Source: Thermoplasmatota archaeon (GTDB taxonomy: Archaea; Thermoplasmatota; Penumbrarchaeia; JANQNL01). Taken from it: a DNA stretch of 64,000 nucleotides. Position 1 is the stretch's first letter. Every line of letters starts with the position of its first letter. The position numbers and the translations under genes were made by a program. The stretch spans positions 9,024-73,023 of the forward strand of contig JANQNL010000009.1 in the NCBI GenBank assembly GCA_028279585.1, in the 5' to 3' direction. Below are positions 12,160-40,152 of the stretch, piece after piece. Under the pieces are notes generated by a model. It did not search any database, was not told where the DNA came from, and saw only the letters and a list, made by a program, of their open reading frames with translations.

Positions 12160-12396
12160 TTCCGGTAATTTCCATTAGAACAGTAAATGGTTTATATACA
12201 CGAGCACAAAAAATACCTGGGGACCATGATGGTGTGATGTTGGTAGCTTGGTCCCCGTCCTTTTTCCAACCTGATTAGTCAGGTTTCGTTAGCGATATAC
12301 GATACAGATCTGGTCATATCTCGCTACCGACCTTCCCCCCTGAACCCGCCTTCACTAACGAAAGCGAACTTAGCAGCTGCTACCAATCCTCACCTA
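12160..12396 (+). repeat. Dispersed repeat module copy A (palindrome-promoter-hairpin-tail)
   Basis: CCGGTAATTTCC, CAGTAAA, TTTATATA, GGGGACCA(12219)..TGGTCCCC(12256), T-tract, then CTTAGCAGCTGCTACCAATCCTCACCTA shared with copy B. Confidence 0.8.
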
Positions 12397-13965
12397 AGTA
12401 TGTCTATTCACACCTGGAACTATCGGTATAAAATCCCCAAACCCAGAGCTGAATGTCTCGACGATCTCTGGAGCCTTCATCTTCGCTATCTCTTTCTTAT
12501 AGTATTGATAGTCCGCTGTTGAATTAAGGACCAATAATCTCTCATTGAAATACTTCATATAACTTTCATCTCGTAACTTACTCGCTATCTCAAGTCCGAT
12601 CTCTAGGATCTGCCGGTCCTTCTTTTCATCTTCCATCCTAATTGCACAATTCGACAGGATCAAACAACATTTCGCGGTATATCGGACGGTCGCCTGACTT
12701 TTGTGGATAGAAGACATCGCTAGTTCCCAATGCTTTTCCGATTTCTTCGTAGCTTCTAGGTACATATAGATCTCAGAAATGAATCCGTTCGTTACACCAA
12801 CTTCAAGTTCATCATTGATCGAGTTATATGATCGGCATGTTTCAAGAAAGGCTGTCAGCGCTGCTTTATAATGCTTGCCTTGGCGTTGAATATCCCCGAT
12901 GTGATGATGGCAAAGAGCCCGATCGGTCTGGTCAATTCCATACACCTTTGATGTTTCCTTCAACAATTCGATAGCGATGAGGGGCTTTCCAATTCTTGTC
13001 AGGCTATATGCTCCTCTTATCGAGTAATCGACAACACTTCGCGGTTGCCCTCTCTGCCATTCAAGATTTTTTTGTAAAGAACGCTTGATATCATCTTTGG
13101 TCAATCTATATGGGTGTGATCCTTTTAGAAGATTCAATTGCTCCTGTTCAGATTTCTTACAGAACCATCGTATGATCGTTGCCATTAGGGTGAAATAGTA
13201 GAATTCTTCTGTTAACATCGTTCCCTCTCGAATAGACTTTGCAAGACCCATATGCTCCTCATCGATTGTTATGTCTAGATCTTCTATCGCTTGAACGATC
13301 TTTTTTGTGAATTTATGAAACTCAATAACACCTTCTATCTCTTCAGGATTTATCAATCGAATTCCAGTATGGATACTTATGGCATGTTCTACATGATCTT
13401 GTGGAAGTTTTACTGCCTTAGTTGCCTTCTCAAGTGAGATCAGATCGTCCAGAAGTTCTATTCCGCATGATTCAATTGGTGGTAATCCAGAGAAAACAGT
13501 AGCGTATGGGCTCTCCCGGTGATCATGGGTGGAAACATCATTTGATCCATGTGGGTCAATAAATAATTCTGGATAGTAATCTCTCATTATACGATCCTGT
13601 TGTCGTGATGTCAATCCATTATGACCGGTTTGTTGCAGATATTTACTCACCCGAGAAATATCTTTTCTCGATGCGGTCTTTGTCAGTAAAAGATCCACAA
13701 AAATCATCACAGCCAATGTTTCCTGATGGTTTCCAGTCCAAGACACCTTCTTGATCTCTTTTCGTATATATCTATTAAAACCAGGATCGATCATTATTCG
13801 GTTTTGTAATAACTCAGATCGTAAGTATCCTGATAATATTTTCTTTTGATCAGCCTCAGAGGACCGATTCAGCTGATGGATCGTATACACCTTACGGCGA
13901 ATTTCATAATAGAAAAATCGTTTGGAATATTTGTTGGATTCATAAAGGATATCGATGTCATTCAT
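12394..13965 (-). CDS. AT-rich hypothetical protein with C-terminal TPR-like repeats
   Basis: Helical repeats ALCHHHIGDI..G.YKAAL..F / GVTNGFISEIY; AT-rich codon usage. Confidence 0.7.
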   Translation of the reverse strand: MNDIDILYESNKYSKRFFYYEIRRKVYTIHQLNRSSEADQKKILSGYLRSELLQNRIMIDPGFNRYIRKEIKKVSWTGNHQETLAVMIFVDLLLTKTASRKDISRVSKYLQQTGHNGLTSRQQDRIMRDYYPELFIDPHGSNDVSTHDHRESPYATVFSGLPPIESCGIELLDDLISLEKATKAVKLPQDHVEHAISIHTGIRLINPEEIEGVIEFHKFTKKIVQAIEDLDITIDEEHMGLAKSIREGTMLTEEFYYFTLMATIIRWFCKKSEQEQLNLLKGSHPYRLTKDDIKRSLQKNLEWQRGQPRSVVDYSIRGAYSLTRIGKPLIAIELLKETSKVYGIDQTDRALCHHHIGDIQRQGKHYKAALTAFLETCRSYNSINDELEVGVTNGFISEIYMYLEATKKSEKHWELAMSSIHKSQATVRYTAKCCLILSNCAIRMEDEKKDRQILEIGLEIASKLRDESYMKYFNERLLVLNSTADYQYYKKEIAKMKAPEIVETFSSGFGDFIPIVPGVNRHT

Positions 13966-14024
13966 TCTTTCACCAAAAAGGAAAATGAGACCGAAGTAAG
14001 TACCTCGGTCTCAATATATAACAC

Positions 14025-14174
14025 TCACTTGCCTCGAGACCGATGGTAGGCGCTATTGTTCGGATTCATCTGATTGCTTCGATTATCCATAGACGCCTGG
14101 TGTTCTGAGCTCGTGGGGTTATGACTATCTGATCTTTGATCGTTTGACGACCGTTCTTTTTCTGCCATTTCCAT
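14025..14174 (-). CDS. 49-aa DNRSNQxNPNN-motif protein (not in the ORF track)
   Basis: MEMAEKERSSNDQRSDSHNPTSSEHQASMDNRSNQMNPNNSAYHRSRGK. Confidence 0.7.
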   Translation of the reverse strand: MEMAEKERSSNDQRSDSHNPTSSEHQASMDNRSNQMNPNNSAYHRSRGK

Positions 14175-14352
14175 ATCCTGCCTTGATAAGACAATACTAT
14201 GTAGCCGTATGAATATAAACCGAAATCGGACATAAATCGGGTTTTTATAACGATTTGAAGAAAACTAGTTTTTGTTCGATCTACAACACCCATGGACCCA
14301 ATGCAAGGCCCCGCTTAGTCGCTGTTAGTTACAGATACACGCTCTACCATTA

Positions 14353-14682
14353 TCAGATCAGATTATTGAGTGGTTTATACTTCTGCCTCAACTGAATCTC
14401 AAGCAACCAGGCATTCTTGTCAGAGTTTGTGTACAACGCCTTCACTTTCGCCGCGCCATAGTCCTTGTTGCGCCGCATAGCGTCCTCTATCTCATCAACC
14501 ATCCGTCCAGGACCAGTCTTTCCAATGTACTTCACCTGATGGTTGATGTCACCAAAGACGTACACACCAGATCGACATTCGAGGTTCTCGTAATTATCCA
14601 GGATTATCCATTGAGAACACTCCACGACTTTCGGATCACGGTTATCAGAATCGCGCCACTGCATACTATCACATGAATGCAT
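14353..14682 (-). CDS. Stand-alone GIY-YIG nuclease
   Basis: GVYVF...YIGKT...LE..L..KYKPLNN. Confidence 0.75.
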   Translation of the reverse strand: MHSCDSMQWRDSDNRDPKVVECSQWIILDNYENLECRSGVYVFGDINHQVKYIGKTGPGRMVDEIEDAMRRNKDYGAAKVKALYTNSDKNAWLLEIQLRQKYKPLNNLI

Positions 14683-14966
14683 GAACTATGTTGTTATTTA
14701 GCTTGATTTGAACAAAAATCGGATGATCCATCTTTGTTTCACTTTATAAGAACGGATATATTGGTGATGAGATTTGCATAATTTGTGGTTTGGATGATTA
14801 TCAAACTTTTGTTCAAATGAGATTTAATAGCCATTTCCCCCTGATTTTATCTGGTCATCAGCGGCGAAAACTTGGATCATGCATCGAGCGGAGCGGTGGT
14901 CTTGAGGTGGATCTTTCCTTCACGATGGGGTCCTGATTCTTGATGATCTACAGTGAGGGGTTTAGT

Positions 14967-15560
14967 ATGACGTATACACACAACGAGGACGTGGTCATTA
15001 ATGGTAGTTTGACCTTAGATCATGGTACGGACGTGAATGAGTTTTCTACGGATACAACACTTGATGGAGATTCAAACGATGCAGTTCCAACCGAGGCTGC
15101 AGTGAAGGATTATATCGACAAGGCTTGCATGATCGGCTCAGCAAATGCAGCCTGGGTACCATGTGCTTTCGAGGGAACCAATCCAGAAGGATCAATGAGA
15201 TCTGGAGAGCAGATGGAGAACGTTGATGGAACGAACCATTATCCTAGGTACATGTTATGTCTACCTACCAACAGAGGTGGCAAGAAGCTCTATGTCAGCG
15301 GAGTAAGGGTTCTTGTCCAGGATGCTGATAATGATGACTATCTGAGCATGACCAAGGTCATCGGGATTACATATTCAGGATCTCCAACAGCTATTCTGAA
15401 CAGTAGTACCGATGTAAAAAGTGCCCAGAGGCATGAGAAGACATTTACTGCTACTGATTGTTCGAGTTACGACATGGTTGCAGTCACGTTGTATTGCTCT
15501 GTCACAACGGCATATGAGCTTGGGATAAGAGGTGTAACGGTCAAAGCATACTATGCTTGA
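14967..15560 (+). CDS. Protein with a phage tail-fibre-like repeat at its N-terminus
   Basis: VNEFSTDTTLDGDSNDAVPTEAAVKDYID motif; GAGGGG RBS before ATG 14967. Confidence 0.6.
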   Translation: MTYTHNEDVVINGSLTLDHGTDVNEFSTDTTLDGDSNDAVPTEAAVKDYIDKACMIGSANAAWVPCAFEGTNPEGSMRSGEQMENVDGTNHYPRYMLCLPTNRGGKKLYVSGVRVLVQDADNDDYLSMTKVIGITYSGSPTAILNSSTDVKSAQRHEKTFTATDCSSYDMVAVTLYCSVTTAYELGIRGVTVKAYYA

Positions 15561-15616
15561 TTATCCGAAAATTGTACAAATGTAATTATATACACTATTG
15601 TTCAATAGATGTTACA

Positions 15617-17440
15617 ATGAATAGAGCGGTAAAGCTGATTGGAGGATCGGTGATACTTCTTGTGTTATCGTCCTTCATTTTTCTTCTTTCGCCACAAGTC
15701 GAGGTTTCCCTGGGTGAAACTTGTACGACTGAGATCATTGTTGCTAAATCAGGTGGGGATTTTTCAAAGATTCAAGAAGCGATTGATAACGCATCAAATG
15801 ATGCAGCCATTTCTATCATGCCCGGAACTTACATCGAGAACATTGTGATCGACAAGTCATTGTCGTTGGTTGGTACGGACAGAAATGCTGTTTTTATTCA
15901 AGGCTCAGATGATGGTCATACAGTAACGATCGACTCTGAAGACGTTCTCGTATCCAACATCAGTATCACAGGAAGCAGTGATTCCGAATTCGACTCTGCT
16001 GTATATAGCTCATATAATAGAACCTCGATTCAACATTGCAATCTTAGATCACATGCAAATGGAATAATATTCGATTCAGTTCATACAGGGATAATTCAGA
16101 ATAACACCGTTTCTATGAACAATTTCTTAGGTGTTATGATAAAGAACTCTCAGTCAATTGAAGTATATGATAACAGAGTCGAATCAACGACAATGGATTA
16201 TGGGATTGAGATAAGAAAATCACATAATCTCATATTATGCAGAAATGACCTTATCAATAATGGAAGAGCAGGCATATACATGCAATCCTGCAATGATGCG
16301 TATATTGAAAACAATACTATCGAAAGGAACAAGAATGGCGCAATAATCAACTATTGCATGACTACATCCTTCCTCAATAATACCTTGAATGATAACGTGA
16401 ACGATGGTTTCCAAATATCTTCCTCTGACAACAATCACATTTCTAACAATGTTATTTCTAACACAACATCAAGACATGGACTATATCTCACAGTCAACTC
16501 CAACCACAACATCATCGCAAACAACACCATCACTCACAATAAACAATACGGCATCCTGATCACCGACTCATCCACCAACAACACAGTCTACAACAACACC
16601 TTCTACGGCAACAATGAGGACCGGGTCGAAGCATCGGACGAGGTGGGTTCCAACAAATGGGACAACGGAGCCATCGGAAACCACTGGGCCGAATGGACCT
16701 CGCCGGATAACAACGGCGATGGCATTGTAGACGCTCCCTACCCCATCGACGGAGGCATGAACGCACGGGACAGGTTCCCTTTGACCGTACCTCCACAAGG
16801 TACCGATCCAGACATCCGACCAGACACCAACGCCACACTCCATACCACAGATAATGAGTATCCGTTTGATTCGAATCCCAGGCTCATGATTGTTGGAGCG
16901 ATTCCGATCTTCACCATCCTCTTTATTCTCATTGCAGTCATTGTTCACAAGAACGAGGTCCTTCTGGTCCTCTTTTACAAGATATTAACAGCATGTTATT
17001 CCCGGATACAAAGGGATGAGCTGCTCAATCACAAGACCAGAAGCCGCATCTATGGAGCCATATGTTCCCAACCAGCCATCACCTATAGTGACCTCAAGCA
17101 CACGTACGATCTTAGAAATGGAACACTCACACATCATATCGTGAAGCTGGAAAAGGAGAAACTGATCAAGTCTGTAAATCGTGGGAAGAAGGTACATTAC
17201 TTCGATGTGAGAATAAAATATCCGGACAAGTATGTCCATCTCACAAGCCAGCAAAGTATCATACATTCAACGGTCGTTAAGAAACCTGGGATAAGTCAGG
17301 CAGATATTGGCAGAGAAACGGGGATGTCTGCTCAGAAGGTCAACTACCATGTTAAAAGGCTGAAGAAGAAGGGAATGATAATTATTGAGATCGAAGGACG
17401 GCGAAGTGAGTGTTACGATTGTTCTAATCGGCGAAGATAA
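15617..17440 (+). CDS. Membrane-spanning regulator: NosD-like beta-helix + TM + tandem winged-helix
   Basis: Signal anchor, F.KIQEAID, PbH1 repeats, GNHW..DNNGDGIVDAPY..DRFPL, TM, then LNHKTRSRIY..PAITYSDL and PGISQADI..VNYHVKRL. Confidence 0.85.
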   Translation: MNRAVKLIGGSVILLVLSSFIFLLSPQVEVSLGETCTTEIIVAKSGGDFSKIQEAIDNASNDAAISIMPGTYIENIVIDKSLSLVGTDRNAVFIQGSDDGHTVTIDSEDVLVSNISITGSSDSEFDSAVYSSYNRTSIQHCNLRSHANGIIFDSVHTGIIQNNTVSMNNFLGVMIKNSQSIEVYDNRVESTTMDYGIEIRKSHNLILCRNDLINNGRAGIYMQSCNDAYIENNTIERNKNGAIINYCMTTSFLNNTLNDNVNDGFQISSSDNNHISNNVISNTTSRHGLYLTVNSNHNIIANNTITHNKQYGILITDSSTNNTVYNNTFYGNNEDRVEASDEVGSNKWDNGAIGNHWAEWTSPDNNGDGIVDAPYPIDGGMNARDRFPLTVPPQGTDPDIRPDTNATLHTTDNEYPFDSNPRLMIVGAIPIFTILFILIAVIVHKNEVLLVLFYKILTACYSRIQRDELLNHKTRSRIYGAICSQPAITYSDLKHTYDLRNGTLTHHIVKLEKEKLIKSVNRGKKVHYFDVRIKYPDKYVHLTSQQSIIHSTVVKKPGISQADIGRETGMSAQKVNYHVKRLKKKGMIIIEIEGRRSECYDCSNRRR

Positions 17441-17482
17441 CCATTTATAACAGCATCTCCAACGCGTTGGATGAAGCGATGA

Positions 17483-17665
17483 TCACTCAACTCTTTCTAG
17501 GGTCATTGTCTCCCCAACCTCGAACCCATCCTCGATCAACAACATCAGCGTGGGAAGGTCCAGCCCAACCACCTTGATCGGCCTCTTGCCCTCCCTCCAG
17601 TCCTCACCATCCTTTCCGGGATAGCCGTAATACTTCTTTCCATCAAAAACTGTCCATGTGCTCAT
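17483..17665 (-). CDS. 60-aa small protein divergent from repeat copy B
   Basis: GGTGAT RBS then MSTWTVFDGKKYYGYPGKDG...LERVE. Confidence 0.55.
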   Translation of the reverse strand: MSTWTVFDGKKYYGYPGKDGEDWREGKRPIKVVGLDLPTLMLLIEDGFEVGETMTLERVE

Positions 17666-17771
17666 AACATCACCGGGTGTGAGATTGTGTTCTTGGATTA
17701 AAGGATTCTTGTTTGATAAGAAACTCGTTGAGGAAACCAACTTCGGTTTCAATTCCAACTTTATCTCAAAG

Positions 17772-17977
17772 TTTCGGCAATTTCCGATTGAACAGTAAAG
17801 ACTATATTTGATTTGAACCAAAAACGTCGCGGGGACCATATTGGTGTGATGTTTGTAGCCTTGGTCCCCATCTTTTCTTTTCAAACCTGACTAATTGAGC
17901 ATTGCTAACGATCTATCCTCCAAAACGCCCTCCTCCTAACGATCTACACCTTAGCACCTGCTACCGATCCCCGCCTA
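17772..17977 (+). repeat. Dispersed repeat module copy B
   Basis: TTTCGGCAATTTCCGA, CAGTAAA, CTATATTT, GGGGACCA(17831)..TGGTCCCC(17869), T-tract, CTTAGCACCTGCTACCGATCCCCGCCTA. Confidence 0.8.
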
Positions 17978-17981
17978 GCCC

Positions 17982-19217
17982 TCACAACAAACAAGCGGGA
18001 ACGTTCACCACCTTCGTCCCTTCCACGTCCTCCACCTTCGCAACATCGTAGTCCACCAAATACGCCACCTCCGGCTGATACGCCCTGATGAACGACATCA
18101 ACGACCTTGTCCTTTTCCCACCGGCTTTCACCTCCACGGGAACTCCGTCCGAAACGAAGTCCACCTCCGCCTTCCCTTTGGTCCTCCAGTAATTGACCTT
18201 CTTCGAGCTCCTTGCAAGTTGTGTGAAGACATGGTTCTCGAGCATGAATCCCTTGTCACGTGAAAAGACCATATCCTCTGCGAGAACGTTCCTGAACCCA
18301 CCATCGATGAAACAGACCTTGGGTTGCTTCCGGAGCTCTGTGGATAGAGTGGTGAAATATGGCCTGACAAGTTTTATAGCGTGGATATATACCATGATGT
18401 CCATTGTCCGTTTTACCTTATTTATATCGATACCCAGATGGCTCGAGACATCATCATTGTTGATGAGATGACAACAATTGTGAGCCAGATACTTCATGAC
18501 ACGGAGTGCATCGTTACGATAGGCTTGTCCATATACCTTTAGGACATCCTTCTCAATAAGCAGTGTCACAAGTTGGGTAAGAAGGACCTCCTTCTTCTCG
18601 AGATCGTCCATGAGAACGATCCTGGGGTATCCACCATAGACCATGTACTCTATCAATAGATCATTTAGATCATCTATCAACAGTGGTCCATCGATAAGAT
18701 CTCCTTTTCCAACATCGATCCTATTCTTATGATAATATCGATCCCTCTTTGACATCTTGGCCACAAGGAACTCAGAGAATGAGAAAGGGAACATCTCAAA
18801 AAAGACCACTCTTCCGACCAAAGAACCTCCAATGTTCCTCACATCCAATCCACTGCTACCAGTGATGATGAACTTGACCTTCTCATAGTATCTGTCGAAC
18901 AAAACCTTCAATACAGGCCCCGCATTGGGTAGGTTCTGTACTTCATCCAAGATCAGAAGATGCTTTTTTTCATCATGAAGTAAAAGACTTTCCATAAACC
19001 CCATTGGATCCTCCATGAACCTCGAACGTACCATCTCATCATCCAAAGACAGGTATGTTGCAGAGCTTTCAGAGAGCTGGTCGTTGGATACCATCTCATC
19101 GATGAGGTGCTTGACCATGGTAGTCTTTCCACATTGACGTGGTCCGAGGATGCCGATTATCTCTTTCTCATCCATCCATTTCTGGACCTGGCCCTCTATC
19201 TCTCGAGGGACGTACAT
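17982..19217 (-). CDS. AAA_14 ATPase with a DUF4143 C-terminal domain
   Basis: GPRQCGKTT, LDEVQ, TGSS, YGGYP, ENHV..YWRT..EVDFV..PVEVK. Confidence 0.9.
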   Translation of the reverse strand: MYVPREIEGQVQKWMDEKEIIGILGPRQCGKTTMVKHLIDEMVSNDQLSESSATYLSLDDEMVRSRFMEDPMGFMESLLLHDEKKHLLILDEVQNLPNAGPVLKVLFDRYYEKVKFIITGSSGLDVRNIGGSLVGRVVFFEMFPFSFSEFLVAKMSKRDRYYHKNRIDVGKGDLIDGPLLIDDLNDLLIEYMVYGGYPRIVLMDDLEKKEVLLTQLVTLLIEKDVLKVYGQAYRNDALRVMKYLAHNCCHLINNDDVSSHLGIDINKVKRTMDIMVYIHAIKLVRPYFTTLSTELRKQPKVCFIDGGFRNVLAEDMVFSRDKGFMLENHVFTQLARSSKKVNYWRTKGKAEVDFVSDGVPVEVKAGGKRTRSLMSFIRAYQPEVAYLVDYDVAKVEDVEGTKVVNVPACLL

Positions 19218-19317
19218 GAATAGGATATGCCACTCTTCCTACATATAATGTGTGTTTAGTCTTACTAAAATCATTATTTATATTAGAAAAGTAGACATAT
19301 TATCTTCGGCATTCAAT

Positions 19318-19430
19318 TGGACTGCACCCCGGAGAGTGGACACTTTGATTAGCTTTTTCGACAATGGAGGTGAAGCATGCCAAAGCCCAGAACGACCTAC
19401 ACGCGCGAGTTCAAGCTTGCTATCCTTGAC
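19318..19430 (+). mobile_element. IS3-family left-end remnant with the start of orfA
   Basis: TG-starting IR TGGACTGCACCCCGGAGAGTGGACAC, GGAGGTG RBS, MPKPRTTYTREFKLAIL. Confidence 0.8.
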
Positions 19431-19601
19431 CATCGGATATATAGATCGAGTGTCGCCTCCATCTCCACCATCACCGCCATCTATTCCGTCATCAGTATCG
19501 TCACTATCATTGCCGAAATTGATGCATCCTGCCGCCATCAGAGATAGTACGATCAATGTCAGAGCAAGAATCTTGAAAAGCATGAATAACTGTCCCTTCA
19601 T
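19431..19601 (-). pseudogene. Lipoprotein gene truncated at the IS3 remnant
   Basis: Lipobox LMAAGC and GGDGGD linker, then the frame runs into IS sequence. Confidence 0.6.
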
Positions 19602-19621
19602 GTCATATCCACTCCTTCTTG

Positions 19622-20548
19622 TTACCCCGCAGCTGAGTGGAAGATATCCTTCCCGTGTACCTCCCCACTCTGAACATCGACATACACGTCATGATCATCA
19701 TAGGTCTTCTCTCCAAGCACCTCTCTGTATCTCATCCAATAGCAGACATGACCATCGTTGACCTTGATTCCCTTGAAACCAAGGTCCTCGGAAGTATTCA
19801 GCTCATCCTTCGAGATGTTGTTCGCTTCTTCGACAGAGATGTATGGCAAGACCTCATAGATATCCGAATAAATGAGTTCAAAGTTTGCTGAAATGAACTC
19901 CCCATTATCCGCGGCAGTACTGAACATGAAGGACTGATAGTGAACATCGAAAACTTCGTCCTGGTTTATCCTGAACTGAGGTTTGAACTCATGAAGATAG
20001 AAGTTCTCCCATGGTGGGGTCTGAGCAAGGATATGTTCTACACGATAATTAGGGGAACTTAGATCGAACTGCTGCTCATAGATCAGAGAAAGATCATCAA
20101 GGGTGGCCTGGTCCATGTTGTCCTCATCACTTCCCCGAACATTTCCAGTGACAACAGTTACCTCGGTCATATTACCGGTTCTGTTTCGTGTGAAGATCTT
20201 CCATCCATCACTGCAGTTCCATTGGTGATTTATGATGTCTCGATACAAAGACGAGGAATTCGAATATTCCAATATCGTCAACCCGAACTCCTCCGCAAGC
20301 CTATACGCAGCATCCGAATCGTTCATCTTGAACAACCAGTGCTTATCCAGGTTGTTATTGTAAGGACCTGAATGCGTTTCCACAACAGGGTAGGTACCCG
20401 GCTCATAGGTCGTTTCTCTGGGGATTTCATCGTCATCTTTGACCTCACCCTCACGTCCTACACAGCCTGCGAACAGGATCATGAGAACCAGAAGTAGAGT
20501 AGAAGATGCGATAACGGAAACAGTGTTCTTCCTTCTCAAGATGCTCAA
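19622..20548 (-). CDS. Lipoprotein with a PepSY-like C-terminus
   Basis: Lipobox FAGC; ISVEEA..I...VYVDVQSGEV. Confidence 0.7.
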   Translation of the reverse strand: MSILRRKNTVSVIASSTLLLVLMILFAGCVGREGEVKDDDEIPRETTYEPGTYPVVETHSGPYNNNLDKHWLFKMNDSDAAYRLAEEFGLTILEYSNSSSLYRDIINHQWNCSDGWKIFTRNRTGNMTEVTVVTGNVRGSDEDNMDQATLDDLSLIYEQQFDLSSPNYRVEHILAQTPPWENFYLHEFKPQFRINQDEVFDVHYQSFMFSTAADNGEFISANFELIYSDIYEVLPYISVEEANNISKDELNTSEDLGFKGIKVNDGHVCYWMRYREVLGEKTYDDHDVYVDVQSGEVHGKDIFHSAAG

Positions 20549-20605
20549 CCCAGTGAACTATCATTGCTCTGGGTTATTAATAAGTTTCTGGAACACATCC
20601 TCTAA

Positions 20606-22003: not shown

Positions 22004-22124
22004 CAGCAGGGATACGGGAAATAGCTCAAAATAGTTTTTGAAAGGACAGGACAAACATCAGTTTCCCATCGTACAACAAAACACTTTTATCCCCCCACCA
22101 TCATAGTTCCTGATGGTATTGAGA

Positions 22125-22292
22125 ATGGCCGACCCCGACCTCATCCACCGCCTCGAGTCCGTCGAGCAAGAGCTCGAATCTATCAAGCGGGCTTTGAAGG
22201 GTAAGAACATCAAGCTAGCTTCCAGGCTCAAAGGTGTTCGTTTCGATGAGGAAGATTTCCACCAGGCATCTGATAGCATCTTCAACACATGA
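22125..22292 (+). CDS. Putative antitoxin (55 aa, not in the ORF track)
   Basis: MADPDLIHRLESVEQELESIKRALKG..LKGVRFDEEDF directly upstream of a PIN gene. Confidence 0.65.
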   Translation: MADPDLIHRLESVEQELESIKRALKGKNIKLASRLKGVRFDEEDFHQASDSIFNT

Positions 22293-22304
22293 TGAGGGGC
22301 TGTC

Positions 22305-22706
22305 GTGGCGGTCTACAAGACCTTTGTTTCTGATACACATAGTTGGTTATGGTTCCTTTCTGATGATCAAAGGCTTGGAAGGAACGCACAAAAGATATTT
22401 CGATCAGCCGAGAATGGAGAATGTTTGATCCTTCTACCAACAATCGTCGTCGCAGAAGCCATCTACATAGCTAGGAACAGAGGAGTGTTAGCTCATATGA
22501 AGGATATCATATGTGAATTAGGATCCTCTGTGAACTATACCATCAGACCGATCGATCATGAGTTATTGACTAGGCTATCTATGGATGACAGAAAGATGTC
22601 CCAGCATGATAAGATCATCACTATCACAAGCGAGATCGATTCAGCTCCGATAATCACAAAGGATTCTGTTATCCATGAAATGGCAATGACCAAGGTGGTT
22701 TGGTAG
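22305..22706 (+). CDS. vapC: VapC-type PIN-domain toxin
   Basis: DTHSWLWFL..RL...A; E..Y; HDKII..IITKD acidic PIN motifs. Confidence 0.85.
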   Translation: MAVYKTFVSDTHSWLWFLSDDQRLGRNAQKIFRSAENGECLILLPTIVVAEAIYIARNRGVLAHMKDIICELGSSVNYTIRPIDHELLTRLSMDDRKMSQHDKIITITSEIDSAPIITKDSVIHEMAMTKVVW

Positions 22707-32363: not shown

Positions 32364-32372
32364 AAGGTAGCC

Positions 32373-35300
32373 TCAGTCCCACTTCTTCGGCTCTTCCCCA
32401 GGCGGTAACTGCTTCTGGTCCGGTTTCGGTGCCTGTGCTCCGGCATCCGGTGCCGCTGTCGTCGCAGCAACCTGTGGCGTATCATCAGGTGGAGGGAAGT
32501 TCGACTTATCATCCGGTGGAGGGAACTCGCTCTCATCCTCCGGTGGCGGATAGTGGTCATCCATGTTCGGTTTCTCATCCGCTGGGGACACATGCTCTGC
32601 CATGTTGTCCTTGAACTCGGAGTCCGAGACTATCTCTGCCTCGATGTACTCCACTTCCTTCTTCTGCTCCGGCTCGGCCTGTGCAGGCTCTGCAGGTTTC
32701 TCCTCGACCTTTGGCGCAGGCTGGGCAGCAGCTGAGGCCTGCTTCTTTGCACGACGGCTTGCAGCCATCCTGCTGACCGTGACCGAGATGACCACCACGA
32801 GCATGATTATGACGATTATGATTATGAACAAGATGAACATTATCAGGATGACTATGATGTAGAAGATGTCCGGAAGACCATCATCGCTTGTGTTGGTGTT
32901 CCACCTGTCGTAGTCGTTCTTCTCATCCTCGTAATCGTCCAGGTCGTCCTGTGTGGCATCAGAGCCGTTGAGTGGGTCAAGGCCGTTCTTGAGCTCCCAC
33001 CAGTCGGGAAGTCCATCGCTATCGGTGTCTGTCTCGTCACCGCCCTGGACCTTCCAGTCGTCGTCGATACCATCGCCGCCGTCCGTACCATCGGTCCCAT
33101 CTCCTCCATCGCCACCGTCTCCTCCGTCGCCACCGTCACCGCCATCTCCTCCATCGCCACCATCCCCACCGTCGCCACCATCACCGCCATCGGTACCGTC
33201 TGTGCCGTCCCCTCCATCACCGCCATCGCCACCGTCATCAGGAGCTCCGGGCACGTATGGGACAGTGATGAACTGGATACAGACATCAGAGGTGTTCATT
33301 CCATCAGTGACAACAAGGGTCACGATGTACGTCTTGTTGATGCTCAATGGGACGTAGGAGTGATCTATGGTCGCTCCTTCTCCAGAGTTCCCATCACCGA
33401 AGTTCCACTGATAAGTAAGGGTCGTAGAGTCAGGGTCGTCCGCAGCATTTGCGTTGAATGTGATGTTATTACTATTGTCCGGGTCCACGATGTAGGTGAA
33501 GTTGTTGTTGGTCGGGGGTGTGTTCACCAGGATCAGGGTCAGAGTGAACGTGTTCGAACTAACATCGTTCTCACCATCGTCTGCTGTGAAGTACACATCC
33601 GTAAGCGACGAATCCCCATCTGTGGGTGACCACGAAGCAACGTTCGTCACAGCATCGATGTCGATCTCTGGGTTGTTGCAGGTGAACGTCAAGCCGCCTT
33701 CCTCGTCCCAGAAGTGGTCGTCCAGGTCGATGCTCCATATCTGGCCCTTGACGACGTCCGCGTCAGAGATGGTCAGGTTGAAGACCGGCAGGTCGTTGAC
33801 ACTGACGTACGTAAGATCGATGGCAGGTGCTGAAACGTTCATGGAGCTGTTGTCCGCATCGATGGCTGCGAACACCACATCCTCCAATGAGTCAGCATCG
33901 TTGGCTGGTGTCCAAGATGCAGAACCATTGGCGTGGATGGTGATCTCCGGTTCACTGCACCAGAACGTAAGACCAGCTGCGTCCTCCTCGTCGTCGAAGC
34001 ACTCGGTAAGGAAGACCCGCCATGTGGTCTCCTCGTACACATCTGTGTCGTTCAATCCACCAAGGTATTCAGGCATGTCGTTGACAGGGATGAACGTCAG
34101 GGTTATCCCCAAAGAATCCACGGTCAATGCGCCGTTGTCTGCATCCGTGGCTGTGAAGACCACGTTAGAAAGCGTAGCATCACCTTCTACAGGCGACCAC
34201 TCCGCTGTCCCGTTCGGATGTACCGTGATCTCAGAATGACTACATGAGAACGTCAATCCAGCATCGTCCTCGAAGTCATAGAACACCTCGTGGAGGTCCA
34301 CCAACCATGTGGTGTCCTCTTCCACGGAGGTATCGTTCATCGGACCGACATAGTATGGCTCGAAGTTCCGGGCGTCCAGATAGACGAGCAGCTTGTAATA
34401 GGTCCAGAGAAGGTTGTTCGAGGTATCGTAGACCTCGACATAGAAGTTATACAATCCAGCAGTATCTGTGGAGTAGTACCAGCTGTGATAGTCGTACTCA
34501 TAGCCATGGACCGTATAGTTATCGTAGGCAATGCCCACCAGGCCCCCACCATTGGCATAGACCTCGATCACCACTTTCACATCGTAGTGATGCGAGGTCG
34601 AGTCGATGTCATAGAATATCTCGGCAGTGTCAGGATCGGACCCTCTGCCATCCAAGTTGAAGGTATCGACACCCACATCCCAGATGAGAGTCTCGTTGAC
34701 CTCGAGATAGATGGGGTCGTAATACAAAGCCTCCTCGATGTTCCCGAACGCGTCCTCAACAAAGAGCCGGAACGTGAACCATCCAGAGCTCAGAGCAGAG
34801 ACGGTGATGGAGCGCTGGTCTGCAGCTGCACCGGACACAGTGTAATTGTCATAGAAGGTCGTGATGTAGACACCTGTGTCGTTGTACACATCCAATGAAA
34901 CACTGACGGACTCGGAGCTGTTGCCTGAATCCACATCGTAGTACATATTGAAGGTCTCGAAGAACCCATCGAAGTCGTCATCACTGATCGTACCATAGGT
35001 GGAAGCCCTGTAGAACTCCTCGTTCTCACCACCGTTGTCGGTCTCCATCCAGCAGTTGTAGATTATTTCAAAGTCCCGAACATATCCGCTGGCATCTATC
35101 AAGTATACGACGTAGATGAAGTTGTCACGACCACCGCTTAGTGTGAACACGATGTTGCGCTCGTCAACACTGGTCCCAGTGGTGAGCCATGAGTCGGACT
35201 GAGAGCCTCTCTCTGTGAACGTGTAGTCGTAAACGTAGACCCACAGATAGACTGTCTCTGAAGACAGCGTTGTGTCCACATCGTAGTAGGTTGTTATCCT

Positions 35301-36728
35301 GTCGTTGAATCCATCTGCGTCACTGTCGTCCATGACACAGTAAGCATCCTTCAGGTATGACGTGGCTGTGATGAAGTTGAGGTCCATGGTAGAGCCTGAA
35401 GCGGAGAAGCTCGTCATCGATATGGCTGTACCCGAGCCACTGTTGTCGTCATTGTTAGGTGTCGATGAACTTGTGAAGCCTGTTCGAAGGAACCATGGAT
35501 CACCATCATCGCCTCGGTTCTGACTATCGTCTAGGTCCGTCCTCCCATCAGCTTCCTCAAGGTCCACACGCTTGTGGCTTTCATCGTCATTGACGTTGTT
35601 GGCAGCTATTGACCCGACGTTGTCGTCGATATGCCATATCAATATCCCTTCACCAGGCAGGTTAGAATCATAACCGGTCTGCTGCCTGTTCTCTATCAGG
35701 AAATATTCGTTCGTGTTCAGAACGACCTTCAATGCCACTGCGTTCGTCTCTACCTGCTGCAAGGTCCTGTCAATGGACTGACCGGATACGACCGTTGGTG
35801 TGATCCAGCCAAGCTGGACCTTGGACCAGGCACAGAGGTGAGCGGGTGTGTTGCCACCGCCCAGCCATCCTCCGGAGCCCATGAGCCCCCATTCGCCGAT
35901 ACCCTCGGACGAACCATCAGTATCATACAGGTCTGGAAGACCGAGGTCGTGGCCGAACTCGTGGGCAAAGACACCCATGACGGTCTTTTCCGACTGCATC
36001 ATGTATCCCACGGTGTCGGTATCTGTTGCGCGGGTTGTGAACCGGACACCATCAACTGAAGCATCTGTGAACCCTGTGTAACCCTGGCCGTGCATGATCC
36101 ACCTGTGGGACCAGATGTCGTTACCGACACCGGAGCTTGCCTGATCATTGCCGGCCGCTATGATACAGATGTGGACCTCGTCGGTCTGCAGGACGTTGTC
36201 ACCATCCGTATCGTAGGTTGAGAAGTCAATGTCCTTGTCTGCAAGGAGTATAGCTTCACGAGCAAGGGCGTTGATGTAACCGTTCTTGTCATCTATCCCG
36301 GTGGTGCTGTCTGCACCGTAGAAGGTATGGCTTTTAGAGCTTCGATACCAACCGGACCCAGCCACTGTTCCTGTCACGGTCAGCTGGTTGTAGGAGACCT
36401 CGGAATAGTAGTTCCTCATGCTTCCTGCCATTGTGCCGAAGAGCAGGTTGTTGAAGTATGCCTTGGTCTTGACACCAGGCAGGTCGTCGAAGTCCACCAT
36501 GATGGCGATGATGGTCTCAGTACCGGTTATCCTTCCCTGCCTTGATGCAGGAACGCTTTTGGAGATGGGGAAGACATCGACAGTGTCGATGACCTCCATA
36601 TCTGTCCCATCTGTGATCTCTGGCATCACAGCAAGCTGTGCTGTACCAGTGGATGTCATCACTATCAGTGAGACCAGAAGAAGAAGGGTCGTGATAGCAA
36701 GACAAGTGAGCTTTCTCGAATTAAGCAT
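32373..36728 (-). CDS. Membrane-anchored M6 (immune inhibitor A-like) metalloprotease with Ig-like/PKD domains
   Basis: SMRNYYSEVS, IWSHRW, HEFGHDLGLPDLYD, LMGSGGW, EYFLIENRQ, GILIWHID; YQWNFGDG PKD; DTDSDGLPDWWE; TM. Confidence 0.92.
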   Translation of the reverse strand: MLNSRKLTCLAITTLLLLVSLIVMTSTGTAQLAVMPEITDGTDMEVIDTVDVFPISKSVPASRQGRITGTETIIAIMVDFDDLPGVKTKAYFNNLLFGTMAGSMRNYYSEVSYNQLTVTGTVAGSGWYRSSKSHTFYGADSTTGIDDKNGYINALAREAILLADKDIDFSTYDTDGDNVLQTDEVHICIIAAGNDQASSGVGNDIWSHRWIMHGQGYTGFTDASVDGVRFTTRATDTDTVGYMMQSEKTVMGVFAHEFGHDLGLPDLYDTDGSSEGIGEWGLMGSGGWLGGGNTPAHLCAWSKVQLGWITPTVVSGQSIDRTLQQVETNAVALKVVLNTNEYFLIENRQQTGYDSNLPGEGILIWHIDDNVGSIAANNVNDDESHKRVDLEEADGRTDLDDSQNRGDDGDPWFLRTGFTSSSTPNNDDNSGSGTAISMTSFSASGSTMDLNFITATSYLKDAYCVMDDSDADGFNDRITTYYDVDTTLSSETVYLWVYVYDYTFTERGSQSDSWLTTGTSVDERNIVFTLSGGRDNFIYVVYLIDASGYVRDFEIIYNCWMETDNGGENEEFYRASTYGTISDDDFDGFFETFNMYYDVDSGNSSESVSVSLDVYNDTGVYITTFYDNYTVSGAAADQRSITVSALSSGWFTFRLFVEDAFGNIEEALYYDPIYLEVNETLIWDVGVDTFNLDGRGSDPDTAEIFYDIDSTSHHYDVKVVIEVYANGGGLVGIAYDNYTVHGYEYDYHSWYYSTDTAGLYNFYVEVYDTSNNLLWTYYKLLVYLDARNFEPYYVGPMNDTSVEEDTTWLVDLHEVFYDFEDDAGLTFSCSHSEITVHPNGTAEWSPVEGDATLSNVVFTATDADNGALTVDSLGITLTFIPVNDMPEYLGGLNDTDVYEETTWRVFLTECFDDEEDAAGLTFWCSEPEITIHANGSASWTPANDADSLEDVVFAAIDADNSSMNVSAPAIDLTYVSVNDLPVFNLTISDADVVKGQIWSIDLDDHFWDEEGGLTFTCNNPEIDIDAVTNVASWSPTDGDSSLTDVYFTADDGENDVSSNTFTLTLILVNTPPTNNNFTYIVDPDNSNNITFNANAADDPDSTTLTYQWNFGDGNSGEGATIDHSYVPLSINKTYIVTLVVTDGMNTSDVCIQFITVPYVPGAPDDGGDGGDGGDGTDGTDGGDGGDGGDGGDGGDGGDGGDGGDGGDGGDGTDGTDGGDGIDDDWKVQGGDETDTDSDGLPDWWELKNGLDPLNGSDATQDDLDDYEDEKNDYDRWNTNTSDDGLPDIFYIIVILIMFILFIIIIVIIMLVVVISVTVSRMAASRRAKKQASAAAQPAPKVEEKPAEPAQAEPEQKKEVEYIEAEIVSDSEFKDNMAEHVSPADEKPNMDDHYPPPEDESEFPPPDDKSNFPPPDDTPQVAATTAAPDAGAQAPKPDQKQLPPGEEPKKWD
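33068..33240 (-). repeat. Coding (GGD)n / GTD low-complexity stalk
   Basis: Long Gly-Gly-Asp run with varied codons in the M6 protease. Confidence 0.8.
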
Positions 36729-36852
36729 AGCAAACCCTCGCAGACCAAGCTTAGCTTAGTATTTTATGAGTGAGATTGAAATTCATACATAAAGCAATGC
36801 CATTATTGTGTGCTTGATATGTCAAAATCGGGGGTAGATCAATCCCATTGGT

Positions 36853-37440
36853 CTACTCGAACCTGTCATTGAGAATTCTCATCCTATCTTCTGTGATATC
36901 CTCTGCCAACAGACCGAAAACGAGTTGGTCGAACTCCTTCCCTTTCTTACTGTGGAACTTTCGTCTGGTTCCTTCGTAGTTGAATCCACACTTCTCCATC
37001 ATCTTGCGGGAGTTGGGGTTGTTGGATTGACAGTCACCATTGAGCCTTCGTGCATCCAGAACAGAGAAAGCATAGAAGATGAGGAACTCACACGCCGTGG
37101 TCCCGTAGCCTTTCCTCCAGTGCCCATCATCTGTCTGGACACCGACGATGTAAGAACCAGGATGAAATGGGAGTGGCTCCAATGCGCACTCACCGATGTA
37201 GTTCCCATCCTTGGCCCGGATGGTGAACGAGGGGACCTTCGGCAGCTCATCTTTCTCGATCGCATCTGCAATACCCTTGACCACGCGATCGAAGTATCCA
37301 TGGGTCTGTTCTGGAGTGTTGGGGCCAAAGAACATCGTCTTCGTAACAGACTCTTTGGCAAGCATCAGAACAAGGTCATCCATATCACTTTCGACCTGAT
37401 AATTGAACACCAGCTCATCACTTTCCCATCTGATCCTCAT
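36853..37440 (-). CDS. RimJ/RimL-type GNAT N-acetyltransferase
   Basis: HWRKGYGT, NPNSRKMMEKCGF.YEG.RR; likely start MRIRW. Confidence 0.85.
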   Translation of the reverse strand: MRIRWESDELVFNYQVESDMDDLVLMLAKESVTKTMFFGPNTPEQTHGYFDRVVKGIADAIEKDELPKVPSFTIRAKDGNYIGECALEPLPFHPGSYIVGVQTDDGHWRKGYGTTACEFLIFYAFSVLDARRLNGDCQSNNPNSRKMMEKCGFNYEGTRRKFHSKKGKEFDQLVFGLLAEDITEDRMRILNDRFE

Positions 37441-37444
37441 ACCA

Positions 37445-38410
37445 TCACACTCCCGGTGTCTCAGCAACAGCAGCAAAGAAACCCGGTGTCGGCAGATAGT
37501 ACCACCTATCCCCGAATCGCTCCTTCTTGTAGCTCTCGATAAGACACGAGGTGTACATATATAGCACCATCTTCGTCCCCATCTCCTCCCTCCAGCTCTT
37601 CCACCCGCCCTTCTTCCGAAAAGCCGTGACACTGCTGGTGCCCTTGTGCACACCCCCAGCGCTGTCAAGTGTGCCTACCGTGAACTTGCCCTCCTCCTTG
37701 CACGTGACATCCACGCTTGGAAGCGACGTTACCTCTGGTGCTCTCTCATCCCTGTAGTAGAATACAGACATGCCTACGTTGTGTCCATACGGCATGTTGT
37801 TGTCGAACTCCACCTCGTAGCCTACCTTCTTCTGGTCCTCGAAGATCCTGAAACCATTGACCGTGAAGTAGGAACGGAGTTCGTCCATGTACTTGACGAT
37901 ATCAAGCTGGATATCAGAAAGCTTCGCCCGTGCTTCTGGAACCCCCAGAAGATGCAGGGTCTGCAGAAGCTCATCATCCCTGGTCAAAAGACTTGGCATG
38001 AACCAGTCGGTGTCCACCATCAGGTCCACCATGCGTGGGTCTGTCCAGATCCTCTCATACTCCGGCTGGACCGGACGCATGCGCAGCCTGTCCCTCAAAG
38101 ATATCAGGAGGGCTTTGTCAACAGAGAAGGAGCGCTCGTTCCATGGGGTGTGTGGTTCTTCCAATGCCTCGCCAAAGACACCGTCGTTGTCAGCGCACCA
38201 CGCAGATACCGCAAGCCATTCGTCAAGGTCGTCCATGTGATAGAACCACAGGCGCAGCTCCTGCTTGGCCGCGAGATACTCCTTGTAGGTGTCCGAGGGC
38301 CAGAAGTCGAAGTCCGAATCGGTCCAGCCTGGGTCGTCCTTGGCTACAGCCTCGAGCTTGCGGAGTGCTTCCACACGGGTCGAAAGTTCCTTCCCGACAT
38401 CCCTAGGCAT
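37445..38410 (-). CDS. Hypothetical protein
   Basis: Long ORF with host-like codon usage, ending 4 bp before the GNAT start. Confidence 0.7.
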   Translation of the reverse strand: MPRDVGKELSTRVEALRKLEAVAKDDPGWTDSDFDFWPSDTYKEYLAAKQELRLWFYHMDDLDEWLAVSAWCADNDGVFGEALEEPHTPWNERSFSVDKALLISLRDRLRMRPVQPEYERIWTDPRMVDLMVDTDWFMPSLLTRDDELLQTLHLLGVPEARAKLSDIQLDIVKYMDELRSYFTVNGFRIFEDQKKVGYEVEFDNNMPYGHNVGMSVFYYRDERAPEVTSLPSVDVTCKEEGKFTVGTLDSAGGVHKGTSSVTAFRKKGGWKSWREEMGTKMVLYMYTSCLIESYKKERFGDRWYYLPTPGFFAAVAETPGV

Positions 38411-38497
38411 ATAGAGCAGGAGGTAGTGTTTGCATAAAATACTTGCCTGGAAATTGTAACCATGGGAATTATAAACCACCCCATCTATCAGCATACA

Positions 38498-39034
38498 ATG
38501 AAGCGGGCCATCCCATTCCTGATACTCTTGGTGTTCCTTGCAGGATGTACGACCACGACTACAGAGACCGTGGAGTACGAACCAGGGATCATCGAAGTCA
38601 CTTTCTTCGAAGGTACCAGAGTGTCCCAGGCCCAGACCTTACTGCTCAACCACAGCCTTACCTTGCCTGATGATGTCCTCAACACCATCTCTGCAGTTGC
38701 TGTGATGGTGGACCAGGACATGGTGGCAGAGATCGAGGCCGTTATCATCAACTACACCAGGGTCATCGATGCCTACAGCTGTAACTGCTCCGAGGCAAAG
38801 ATCACTGTGAGCTTCACAGGGCTTGTGTCGCAGCTGTTCGTCGATGAGATGGTCTCGCAGTTCGTCAACGCCAGTGTTCTTGAGAACGGTGAGTATCTGG
38901 AGAAGACCACTGTTTCTGGACCGCTACAGATAACGGTCGAGGTCGGAACTGAACAGGCCATCATCGATACTTTGACCGCGGATCCACTCGTATCAGCTAC
39001 TATCAGGATAGAAAAGGTCTCTCCTGAAGAGTAG
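38498..39034 (+). CDS. Lipoprotein
   Basis: MKRAIPFLILLVFLAGC lipobox; leaderless TTATAAA promoter. Confidence 0.75.
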   Translation: MKRAIPFLILLVFLAGCTTTTTETVEYEPGIIEVTFFEGTRVSQAQTLLLNHSLTLPDDVLNTISAVAVMVDQDMVAEIEAVIINYTRVIDAYSCNCSEAKITVSFTGLVSQLFVDEMVSQFVNASVLENGEYLEKTTVSGPLQITVEVGTEQAIIDTLTADPLVSATIRIEKVSPEE

Positions 39035-39089
39035 TCCAATCATTATCCTTTTTAACCGACACTACAATTCCCCTAACCGAGGGTTTATC

Positions 39090-39758
39090 GTGGGTAAGGC
39101 CAAGAAGAAAGCGGATTCTGATACTGAGGAGCTCGAAAAAGCAGTGGACACCATTGCCGACGAGATTAAGAAAGAGATCCGAAAAGAAAAAAAGAAGTCC
39201 AAAACCTCGGAGCCTGAAGACGAGTTCGCAAAGATGCGAAAGGAGTTCGAGGACTCCATGCGGAACCGGGAGTATCCTCCGGACTTCGACAAGGAGGCCT
39301 TCATCAAAAAGGAGATGAAGAAGTACGACCGCGATATGTCTTGGGCTCGTGAAGAGAACGAAGCTGAAGCTGAAGAAATGAAGAGCAAAAAGAAGAAGAA
39401 GTCCGGTCCCAGAGCCATCGACCCAGACTCCATCGGCGCATCTAGTCCTCCCCCGCGGACCTACAAGAAAAAGAGCTCTGTAGATGGGGCAAAACTTGGT
39501 GTCTCTTTATTCACCGTTCTGTTCCTGACAATAATCTCGCTGGTCATGTCCGCTTTGTGGCTTGCCTTCCTTTACTGGTGCTGGCTTGGTCTTGAAGCAA
39601 GATGGGACATCTTCCTGTTCCACCTACCACTTCCCAAGTTCTGCTGCCAAACGTGCGTCATACTATCAGCGATCTGTACCGTACTAGGATTTTTCGGAAC
39701 GCTTGCTTCGAGGATAAAGAAGGCATACAGTGCGTCCACTGGGGAAGATATGGACTGA
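39090..39758 (+). CDS. Membrane protein with a charged N-terminus
   Basis: Lys/Glu-rich N-terminus and two hydrophobic segments. Confidence 0.7.
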   Translation: MGKAKKKADSDTEELEKAVDTIADEIKKEIRKEKKKSKTSEPEDEFAKMRKEFEDSMRNREYPPDFDKEAFIKKEMKKYDRDMSWAREENEAEAEEMKSKKKKKSGPRAIDPDSIGASSPPPRTYKKKSSVDGAKLGVSLFTVLFLTIISLVMSALWLAFLYWCWLGLEARWDIFLFHLPLPKFCCQTCVILSAICTVLGFFGTLASRIKKAYSASTGEDMD

Positions 39759-39761
39759 ACA

Positions 39762-39941
39762 TCAGCTCCACAACCTGACCTCTCCCCCCATCACTTCCCC
39801 CGGCCACTGGACAGGCCCCAGTACCTTCACCTTACCCTGAGCAAGCTCCCCATCAGCGATCCTGTGGAACACTCCGTCTGGGTCTTGCATGAGAACCTCC
39901 GGCCCCTCCCAACCCTCACAGTATCCCCAAACGTATAACAT
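39762..39941 (-). CDS. 59-aa YVWGYCEGWE protein divergent from repeat copy C (not in the ORF track)
   Basis: MLYVWGYCEGWEGPEVLMQDPDGVFHRIADGELAQGKVKVLGPVQWPGEVMGGEVRLWS; TTTATAA about 24 nt upstream; homolog at 12 kb. Confidence 0.72.
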   Translation of the reverse strand: MLYVWGYCEGWEGPEVLMQDPDGVFHRIADGELAQGKVKVLGPVQWPGEVMGGEVRLWS

Positions 39942-40039
39942 CGATGTACCTTACGTTCTCGAGTGTTATAAACTTGAGTAGGATTTCCATTTCCACGAGT
40001 GCGAATTGTAATTTGGTTGATAAATTAACAAGCGTGCAG

Positions 40040-40152
40040 TTTCGGCAATTTCCGTTTGTACAGTAAAGGTTTTAATAGCTCTGATGAACAAAGGCTCGTG
40101 GGGATCACCATGGTGTGATGTGTAGCCTTTGGTCCCCACACTCATGCTTTTC
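40040..40152 (+). repeat. Dispersed repeat module copy C
   Basis: TTTCGGCAATTTCCG, CAGTAAA, TTTTAATA, GTGGGGATCA(40098)..TGGTCCCCAC(40139), then GCTTTT. Confidence 0.8.

Follow-up and report, generated by a model that had tools for sequence, protein, structure and literature searches.

A promoter-linked hairpin present in three copies in a Thermoplasmatota archaeon: candidate genes for a small non-coding RNA

The stretch analysed here, called the window, comprises 64,000 nucleotides of a Thermoplasmatota archaeon and corresponds to positions 9024-73023 of contig C86 (JANQNL010000009.1) in assembly G000, a metagenome-assembled genome of 3.8 Mb in 218 contigs, 85% complete and with a GC content of 52%. 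Three copies of one module (A, B and C) were found in it, in which a predicted archaeal promoter is followed at a fixed distance by a hairpin. The hairpin element is real, unclassified and found so far in this one genome only. The explanation given somewhat better than an even chance is that the copies are three paralogous genes for a small non-coding hairpin RNA of about 45-55 nt, which would be fired from a promoter of the toxin-antitoxin (TA) type.

The window contains exactly three matches to the pattern formed by the 5' stem, the loop core and GTAGC, at 12219, 17831 and 40100 and always on the + strand, while 0 of 100 dinucleotide shuffles of the window contained a match. The hairpins are 38-39 nt long and occupy 12219-12256 in copy A, 17831-17869 in copy B (39 nt) and 40100-40137 in copy C (38 nt). 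They are single units lying 5.6 and 22 kb apart, all inside one 28-kb stretch. The order of parts is the same in the three copies: upstream promoter element, B recognition element (BRE) and TATA box, a spacer of 31-32 nt, a stem of 8 bp, an invariant loop core and a run of T. The distance from CAGTAAA to GGGG was measured as 31, 31 and 32 nt. The first-pass annotation, made from the sequence alone, had described three + strand copies of equal order and spacing with 31-32 nt at this place, and both statements held. It had also given the stem as 8-10 bp; the 8 bp, formed by GGGGAYCA and TGGTCCCC, stood and the extension to 10 bp was seen in copy C alone. The interior between the stem arms measures 22-23 nt and holds the invariant TGGTGTGATGT and GTAGC. 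When the copies are read aligned, it contains an inner helix of 3 bp (GGU/GCC in B and C, GGU/GCU in A), which closes an apical loop of 10-12 nt with the sequence GUGAUGU(N0-2)GUA. A covariance model, R1, was built from the three hairpin copies and scored them at 70.3 (A), 67.5 (B) and 63.4 bits (C).

The conservation among the copies is blockwise. On the promoter side the pairwise identity is 12-15 of 15 positions in the upstream element and 8 of 8 in ACAGTAAA; in the hairpin it is 7-8 of 8 in the 5' stem, 11 of 11 in the TGGTGTGATGT core, 5 of 5 in GTAGC and 8 of 8 in the 3' stem. Outside these blocks the copies resemble each other little, with 12-15 of 31 positions identical in the TATA-bearing spacer, 0-1 of 3 in the internal loop and 7-14 of 40 in the 40 nt downstream. 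Blocks kept amid a drifted spacer and drifted flanks indicate selection on the blocks rather than a recent duplication tract, and the pattern among these otherwise near-random duplicates points to selection on the hairpin and the BRE. The wider homology is a mosaic: A and C are alike from the micro-ORF (small open reading frame) side as far as the hairpin's 3' end, the core is all that B and C have in common, and the A-C and B-C homology ends at that 3' end. The tails of A and B are related, including a block of 28 nt with 86% identity, and no common fold was found in them. The tail of copy A (12266-12396, +) ends in this block, and that of copy B (17882-17981, +) carries an 11-nt direct repeat, CTAACGATCTA, at 17905 and 17936.

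Just two substitutions fall on paired positions, in the outer stem of copy C and in the inner helix of copy A. Both are C-to-U changes opposite G, which leave a G-U pair in a + strand RNA and would give A-C in a - strand RNA. The change in copy C had been pointed out in the first reading as pairing on the + strand only, and the change in copy A is a second one of the same kind. Together they offer thin directional evidence for a + strand RNA.

The promoter was identified from its elements in each copy. In copy A the upstream element (12160-12181, including a genome-wide motif described below) and the BRE-like ACAGTAAA (12180-12187) precede a TATA box, TTTATATA, at 12191-12198, which is centred about 25-28 nt ahead of the GGGG run. 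The corresponding positions on the same strand are 17772-17799 for the upstream element with ACAGTAAA and 17802-17809 for the TATA-like CTATATTT in copy B, and 40040-40067 and 40070-40077 (TATA box TTTTAATA) in copy C. Upstream of the 41 tRNA genes in this genome, the TATA box is accompanied by a BRE with the pattern RAAAG, for example CTGAAAGG with TTTATTA, and the module combination of ACAGTAAAGG and TTTTAATA has the same form. No comparable BRE was found on the opposite side of the module TATA box; the promoter is thus predicted to point rightwards. The centre of an archaeal TATA box usually lies at about -26, which would place +1 inside the GGGG run. A pyrimidine at -1 and a G at +1 are found at the first G of this run in 3 of 3 copies. 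The genome also provided an internal calibration from three promoters of the same family that probably serve leaderless genes: their ATG lies 16-17 nt after a 43-nt motif window, and by hand count GGGG begins 13-14 nt after the same window. This calibration agrees with a predicted +1 in GGGG.

The promoter part of the module is not private to the hairpin copies. The near-palindrome at its left, noted in the first reading, is not an operator of the module alone. About 20 other promoters of the genome carry an upstream motif to which its right half belongs. Two sites with the promoter part and without the hairpin were found first by nhmmer and BLAST, one at C59:547 (23 of 23 bases identical to copy C) and one where contig C158 begins (78% identical over 50 nt). 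Many further sites were then retrieved with a profile made from five promoters. The strict motif TTTCC[GA]WTNGWA[CA] has 32 matches in the genome against 2 for the reversed control pattern, and in 21 of the 32 an A/T-rich octamer (TATA) follows 4-13 nt after the motif. All three hairpin copies match the strict motif together with the TATA requirement. A later profile was built from those 21 sites, so its matches to them fit by construction. The element, TTTCCGWTNGAAC, stands beside BRE/TATA on contigs such as C174, C5, C193, C131, C71, C199, C158 and C59. In IMG/VR the promoter pattern gave 19 matches, all unrelated.

The first downstream ORFs of 20 such promoters outside the window were considered, and 18 were scanned with Pfam; a 70-aa antisense ORF on C195 and an ORF running off C80 were left out. 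HicB-like antitoxin was found twice, and MazE, DUF2683, DUF5678, DUF4258, Phage_base_V and GNAT once each, where DUF5678, DUF4258 and DUF2683 are families that we take to be TA-related. DUF424, FBPase and a beta-helix protein, one each, stand behind the weakest motif matches (E 0.24-0.32), and 7 of the 18 ORFs had no Pfam family over threshold. The promoter on C158 precedes a baseplate-wedge gene (Pfam Baseplate_J; phrog_6, E 7.5e-24). The motif set is therefore described here, on these annotations, as one that appears mostly to drive small TA-type genes with the antitoxin first and virus-tail genes, with the hairpin genes as three predicted members; it has the look of a regulon or of a promoter common to the mobilome. 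Within the set the hairpin, not the upstream element, is what sets the three genes apart. A concrete and testable idea follows from the shared promoter type: TA modules, tail genes and the hairpin RNA may be turned on together by one regulator. With its shared upstream element and about 20 members the promoter family is a ready-made regulon to work on and may be the more useful result. The hairpin, if it is transcribed, would stand for a family of small RNAs not yet classified, situated in a defence island of an archaeal lineage that has been poorly sampled. A severe practical limit is that the element comes from a single metagenome bin and that no relatives carry it.

Several members of this promoter set were noted in their own right. 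Contig C158 (locus L097, 1-5300) begins within the promoter motif and continues with the Baseplate_J/phrog_6 gene cluster, which may be a provirus, tailocin or contractile-injection remnant, and on C199 a Phage_base_V gene lies behind the same motif. The closest relative of the module promoter, without the hairpin, is on C59 (L098, 534-720 and 1041-1598). It is followed by a possible leaderless ORF of 30 aa and by a second TATA with a TGATCTGAACAAAAATTG core that resembles the spacer of copy B; a gene for a double winged-helix regulator of the HVO_0163 type lies about 450 nt downstream. A weaker relative on C195 (L099, about 23574-23465, - strand) has a different GGGG hairpin at the expected start, with a 10-bp stem and a 24-nt loop, which runs into the 3' end of a convergent ATPase-like ORF of 576 aa, an architecture analogous to copies A and B.

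On the preferred explanation, the canonical archaeal promoter (upstream element, BRE-like sequence and TATA) would start transcription within the GGGG run. The nascent RNA would fold at once into the 8-bp stem, the internal loop and the 3-bp inner helix, with the apical loop displaying the invariant GUGAUGU..GUA, and the U-run after the hairpin would terminate most transcripts. On the + strand this run is T5 at 12261-12265 in copy A, where it is a candidate terminator, T4CT4 at 17873-17881 in copy B and T4 at 40148-40151 in copy C. We infer that the RNA is made, with its 5' end at G1-G4 and its 3' end at the T-run. The loop may be the surface by which a partner, protein or RNA, recognises the molecule, and the RNA may be switched on with the TA and mobilome promoter set. 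The proposal in the first-pass annotation of a + strand promoter with +1 in GGGG and a hairpin with a displayed invariant loop is supported as the best reading.

Several observations weigh against a small RNA gene. Two changes compatible with G-U are weak statistics and no double compensatory changes were seen; such changes cannot be counted where there is no homologue elsewhere, and the element is known from three copies in a single genome that is 85% complete. The folding energies are ordinary compared with shuffles (z of -1.2, -2.2 and -0.7 for A, B and C). The T-runs are short and that of copy C begins 10 nt past the stem. Elsewhere in the genome 10 further sites match the reverse complement of the 11-nt loop core, and none of them is marked as a target. 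The invariant "loop" is also compatible with a DNA-binding site, and the A-runs 5' and T-runs 3' of the stem in A and B also suit a two-way terminator. Three other interpretations of the loop region were rejected. A conserved peptide from the loop AUG is excluded because indels of 1-2 nt in the loop put the AUG frames of A, B and C out of register. Mimicry of a tRNA D-loop applies to copy A alone. Pairing between loop and tail amounts to 8-9 bp in A and, from our own inspection of the sequence, to about 5 bp in B, and is not conserved.

The hairpin could instead act as DNA, an alternative that was considered fairly unlikely: an 8-bp inverted repeat of fixed spacing, with the conserved sequence between its arms, would be bound by a protein at the transcription start of a TA-type promoter; the site could serve as an operator, a roadblock or a place of recombination, and any RNA would be incidental. 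The spacing of the arms indeed stays at 22-23 bp while GTAGC slides between them, the homology between copies breaks at the edge of the site, and the low-GC defence island around copies A and B contains insertion sequence (IS) relics. The site would span +1 to +38, a region often used by archaeal repressors. Yet both substitutions reduce the symmetry of the DNA while keeping the pairing of a + strand RNA, no integrase or transposase was found beside any hairpin copy, and no candidate binding protein is common to the three loci. A role of the hairpin as no more than a stabilising 5' end on longer transcripts was judged distinctly unlikely. Such transcripts would run as cis-antisense RNA into the convergent TPR-like and AAA_14-DUF4143 genes at their 3' ends in A and B, and as a leader towards DUF2683 in C. 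The convergent, defence-type genes at 135 and 112 nt from A and B, the 28-nt block shared by their tails, the analogous arrangement on C195 and the short T-runs all fit such transcripts. They are opposed by tails that lack a conserved fold and are otherwise poorly conserved, by copy C, which has no convergent gene and is followed by a DUF2683 gene with its own promoter motif, and by the two other DUF4143 genes of the genome, which lack the module; nor does a stabilising hairpin need an invariant loop.

A two-way transcription terminator or insulator that happens to adjoin a promoter was rated very improbable. The stem is flanked by A6 and T5 in copy A and by A5 and T4CT4 in copy B, the complementarity in B extends over 13 nt, and, read on the - strand, the convergent genes are followed by the hairpin. 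Copy C, however, has only T3 on the - strand and no adjacent convergent gene, and neither the invariant 16-nt loop sequence nor a promoter at fixed distance is required by a terminator. Termination in archaea relies on T-runs rather than on hairpins, which also speaks against this function. The first reading had further allowed for the conserved end of a cassette-type mobile unit, and this was given the lowest probability of all, whether as a miniature inverted-repeat or palindrome-associated transposable element (MITE or PATE), the end of an IS or a cassette junction like that of integrons. The mosaic homology, with A and C sharing the left side and A and B the right, and the defence island with its IS3 relics would suit it. 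However, no terminal inverted repeats or target duplications were found at the edges of the shared core, the assembly contains neither Y1 transposase nor TnpB, all three copies sit in one 28-kb stretch, the nearby repeat is a separate and unrelated IS3 relic, and no copy was found in 185,579 species genomes, metagenomes or IMG/VR. As a further reading of the RNA itself, which is quite doubtful, the hairpin may be the RNA counterpart of a protein antitoxin, a new, non-repetitive type of archaeal RNA antitoxin or decoy with a loop that would bind one of the island's defence or toxin proteins and neutralise it, or else sense it. The type of promoter that serves HicB, MazE, DUF2683 and DUF5678-type antitoxin genes would then, with the same doubtful standing, drive a hairpin instead in three cassettes.

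The candidate RNA was compared with the known kinds. It resembles archaeal stand-alone small RNA genes in that the promoter is canonical, the start is predicted at the base with which a stable hairpin opens, a T-run follows, the position is intergenic and the size small. It differs from them in the absence of an Rfam match and in its three dispersed paralogues in one genome. RNA antitoxins of type III TA systems (ToxI and the like) are tandem direct repeats followed in the same operon by an endoribonuclease toxin gene. The likeness to them lies in a short structured RNA in a defence context, with a conserved single-stranded part predicted to bind protein and a promoter from the family that drives protein antitoxin genes here. 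In contrast, the hairpins are single units, no endoribonuclease toxin gene is adjacent on the same strand and the neighbours differ per copy; the type III assignment was rejected given units 5.6 and 22 kb apart and downstream genes that are convergent or unrelated. Type I systems involve overlapping antisense transcription with a gene for a small membrane peptide. This type was also rejected, as the micro-ORFs are divergent and non-overlapping, that of C is acidic and predicted to be all-beta, and that of B is unrelated.

Box C/D small RNAs (sRNAs) have a C box (RUGAUGA) and a D box (CUGA) that form a kink-turn (K-turn) beside the terminal stem. The size, a loop GUGAUGU that equals the C box at 6 of 7 positions and an L7Ae gene in the genome are points of likeness; the assignment failed on the absence of CUGA and on the 3' strand before the stem, which reads CU, CU or UU and not GA, so that no kink-turn can form. 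In H/ACA sRNAs, ACA stands directly 3' of a lower stem, and the RNA also has a pocket and an upper stem that bears a K-turn or K-loop. The 3' flank of the hairpin is GUC in A, AUC in B and ACA in C only, and the 22-23 nt inside the stem leave no room for a pseudouridylation pocket, hence this kind was excluded too. A tRNA or tRNA-like minihelix was dismissed: ARAGORN found 0 tRNAs in the window, and a filter of the genome tRNAs (beginning with GGGG or ending with GGTCCCC or GATCCCC) returned no record among the 42 counted, its parsing being unchecked. Solitary RNAs resembling CRISPR repeats, such as RNA anti-CRISPRs and CreA, consist of a promoter driving a single repeat unit; the likeness to them lies in the promoter, the single palindromic unit of repeat size (38-39 nt) and the defence or mobile context. 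No CRISPR array and no Cas1 were found in the assembly, an incomplete bin of the sort from which arrays are often lost. Repetitive extragenic palindromic (REP) and PATE elements of the IS200/IS605 type occur in many copies with a cognate Y1 transposase or RAYT in the genome. They share with the hairpin a dispersed, conserved, imperfect palindrome in intergenic DNA, but the hairpin is always joined to a promoter at a fixed distance and has three copies only. With 0 matches to Y1 transposase (PF01797) and TnpB (PF07282) in the assembly, an incomplete bin at 85%, this class was set aside.

The hairpin was searched for in larger collections. The own assembly holds no further copy by regular expression, nhmmer or R1. 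The covariance-model search for further copies, which the first-pass annotation had proposed, was negative: R1 gave at most 25.5 bits elsewhere in the own genome and in 100 relatives, and none of the 12 best matches, which were inspected, has the loop core or the promoter. By pattern the 100 relatives gave no match without mismatch outside G000, and a single match with one mismatch, in genome G022, which R1 does not recognise. Among 185,579 species genomes the 5' half of the pattern had 15 matches, all bacterial, and 0 of 15 had the rest of the hairpin. In the JGI metagenome contigs 53 pattern matches were obtained and 0 of 53 were real, and in IMG/VR there were 0 hairpin matches. Among sequencing runs none of RNA was found to contain 11800-18200, and a single DNA run, X1, does, which may itself be the source; runs X1-X3 covered neither module over 10500-20400 and showed no joints, which carries no weight either way. 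The window had 0 matches at the gathering threshold to Rfam 15 (4,227 families), consistent with the earlier statement that this is not a described family; around copy A there were 0 matches at E up to 10, and around copy C two at chance level, rox2 with 17.5 bits against a threshold of 55 and Spd-sr37 with 13.9 against 45. The accessible portions of the literature on DUF4143, DUF2683, archaeal TA systems, small RNA and defence islands and Thermoplasmatota non-coding RNA describe no such element.

Each copy has a micro-ORF on the - strand, divergent from the hairpin, starting about 98-106 nt left of the upstream element. The micro-ORFs of A (11912-12061, 49 aa) and C (39762-39941, 59 aa) are homologous, as had been claimed, with about 51-53% identity and invariant residues including YVW, GWE, PEV and IADG. 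The proposed pairing of micro-ORF and hairpin proved loose: that of A is frameshifted after about residue 35, its ancestral C-terminus being visible in another frame, and that of B (17483-17665, 60 aa) is an unrelated orphan preceded by a GGTGAT Shine-Dalgarno sequence. Given this frameshift in A and the unrelated ORF in B, the RNA and micro-ORF pair is judged from the sequences not to be a conserved unit. Micro-ORF C is acidic and is predicted to encode a small all-beta protein, modelled by AlphaFold with four strands (pLDDT 76); Foldseek against the PDB gave no match below E 0.7. A full HMMER scan of 1.84 billion representatives found one outside relative, P0006, a protein of 65 aa on a contig of 986 nt, which is homologous to micro-ORF C. 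Five long repeat proteins in the same scan were rejected because their scores arise from repeated weak matches. Word-based searches returned the queries themselves only, the ESM Atlas gave no usable match and IMG/VR no relative. No relative was found in 400 genomes of the phylum, where the best match (E 4e-4) has 3 in-frame stops.

Copies A and B lie inside a low-GC stretch (window 7000-20000; 38-46% against 52% for the genome) that is interpreted as a defence island. It includes a ParE toxin gene (7235-7495), preceded by an ORF of 85 aa, and a PDC-M19B/A pair (9621-11461), of which PDC-M19A carries DUF488; a weak PIN match (22305-22706) lies just beyond it. The right-hand neighbours named in the first reading were recovered in part. 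The AAA_14 and DUF4143 ATPase gene right of copy B (17982-19217, PDC-S01) and the DUF2683 gene right of copy C (40287-40511, +) stood, the gene right of copy A (12394-13965) is only TPR-like with a sub-threshold match, and those of A and B are convergent, on the - strand. The DUF2683 gene need not be cargo of copy C either: a second copy of the promoter motif, outside the hairpin unit at 40156-40169 (+), is probably its own promoter. The relics of the left end of an IS3-family element lie at 11567-11628 and 19318-19379; the repeat is 62 nt long, 95% identical and ends in a Shine-Dalgarno sequence and ATG. The relics in the window are truncated, the second region being recorded as far as 19430, and full copies of the element break the assembly at the ends of C81, C37 and C38.

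Three minor features of the window were recorded beside these genes. A perfect hairpin of 12 bp with TTTTCCTTTT after it (13986-14013, -) looks like a terminator; it lies between the TPR-like gene and an ORF of 75 aa (14066-14293). At 14940-17440 a protein of 206 aa, similar over residues 22-69 to the C-terminal end of a phage tail-fibre family (phrog_9851, E 2e-9), overlaps the start of a 627-aa protein, which is an odd fusion of a NosD-type beta-helix with two winged-helix DNA-binding domains. A possible leader structure lies shortly before the DUF2683 start codon: a perfect inverted repeat of 11 bp (40224-40270), in whose 25-nt interior the 9-nt direct repeat TTACAAAAC occurs twice.

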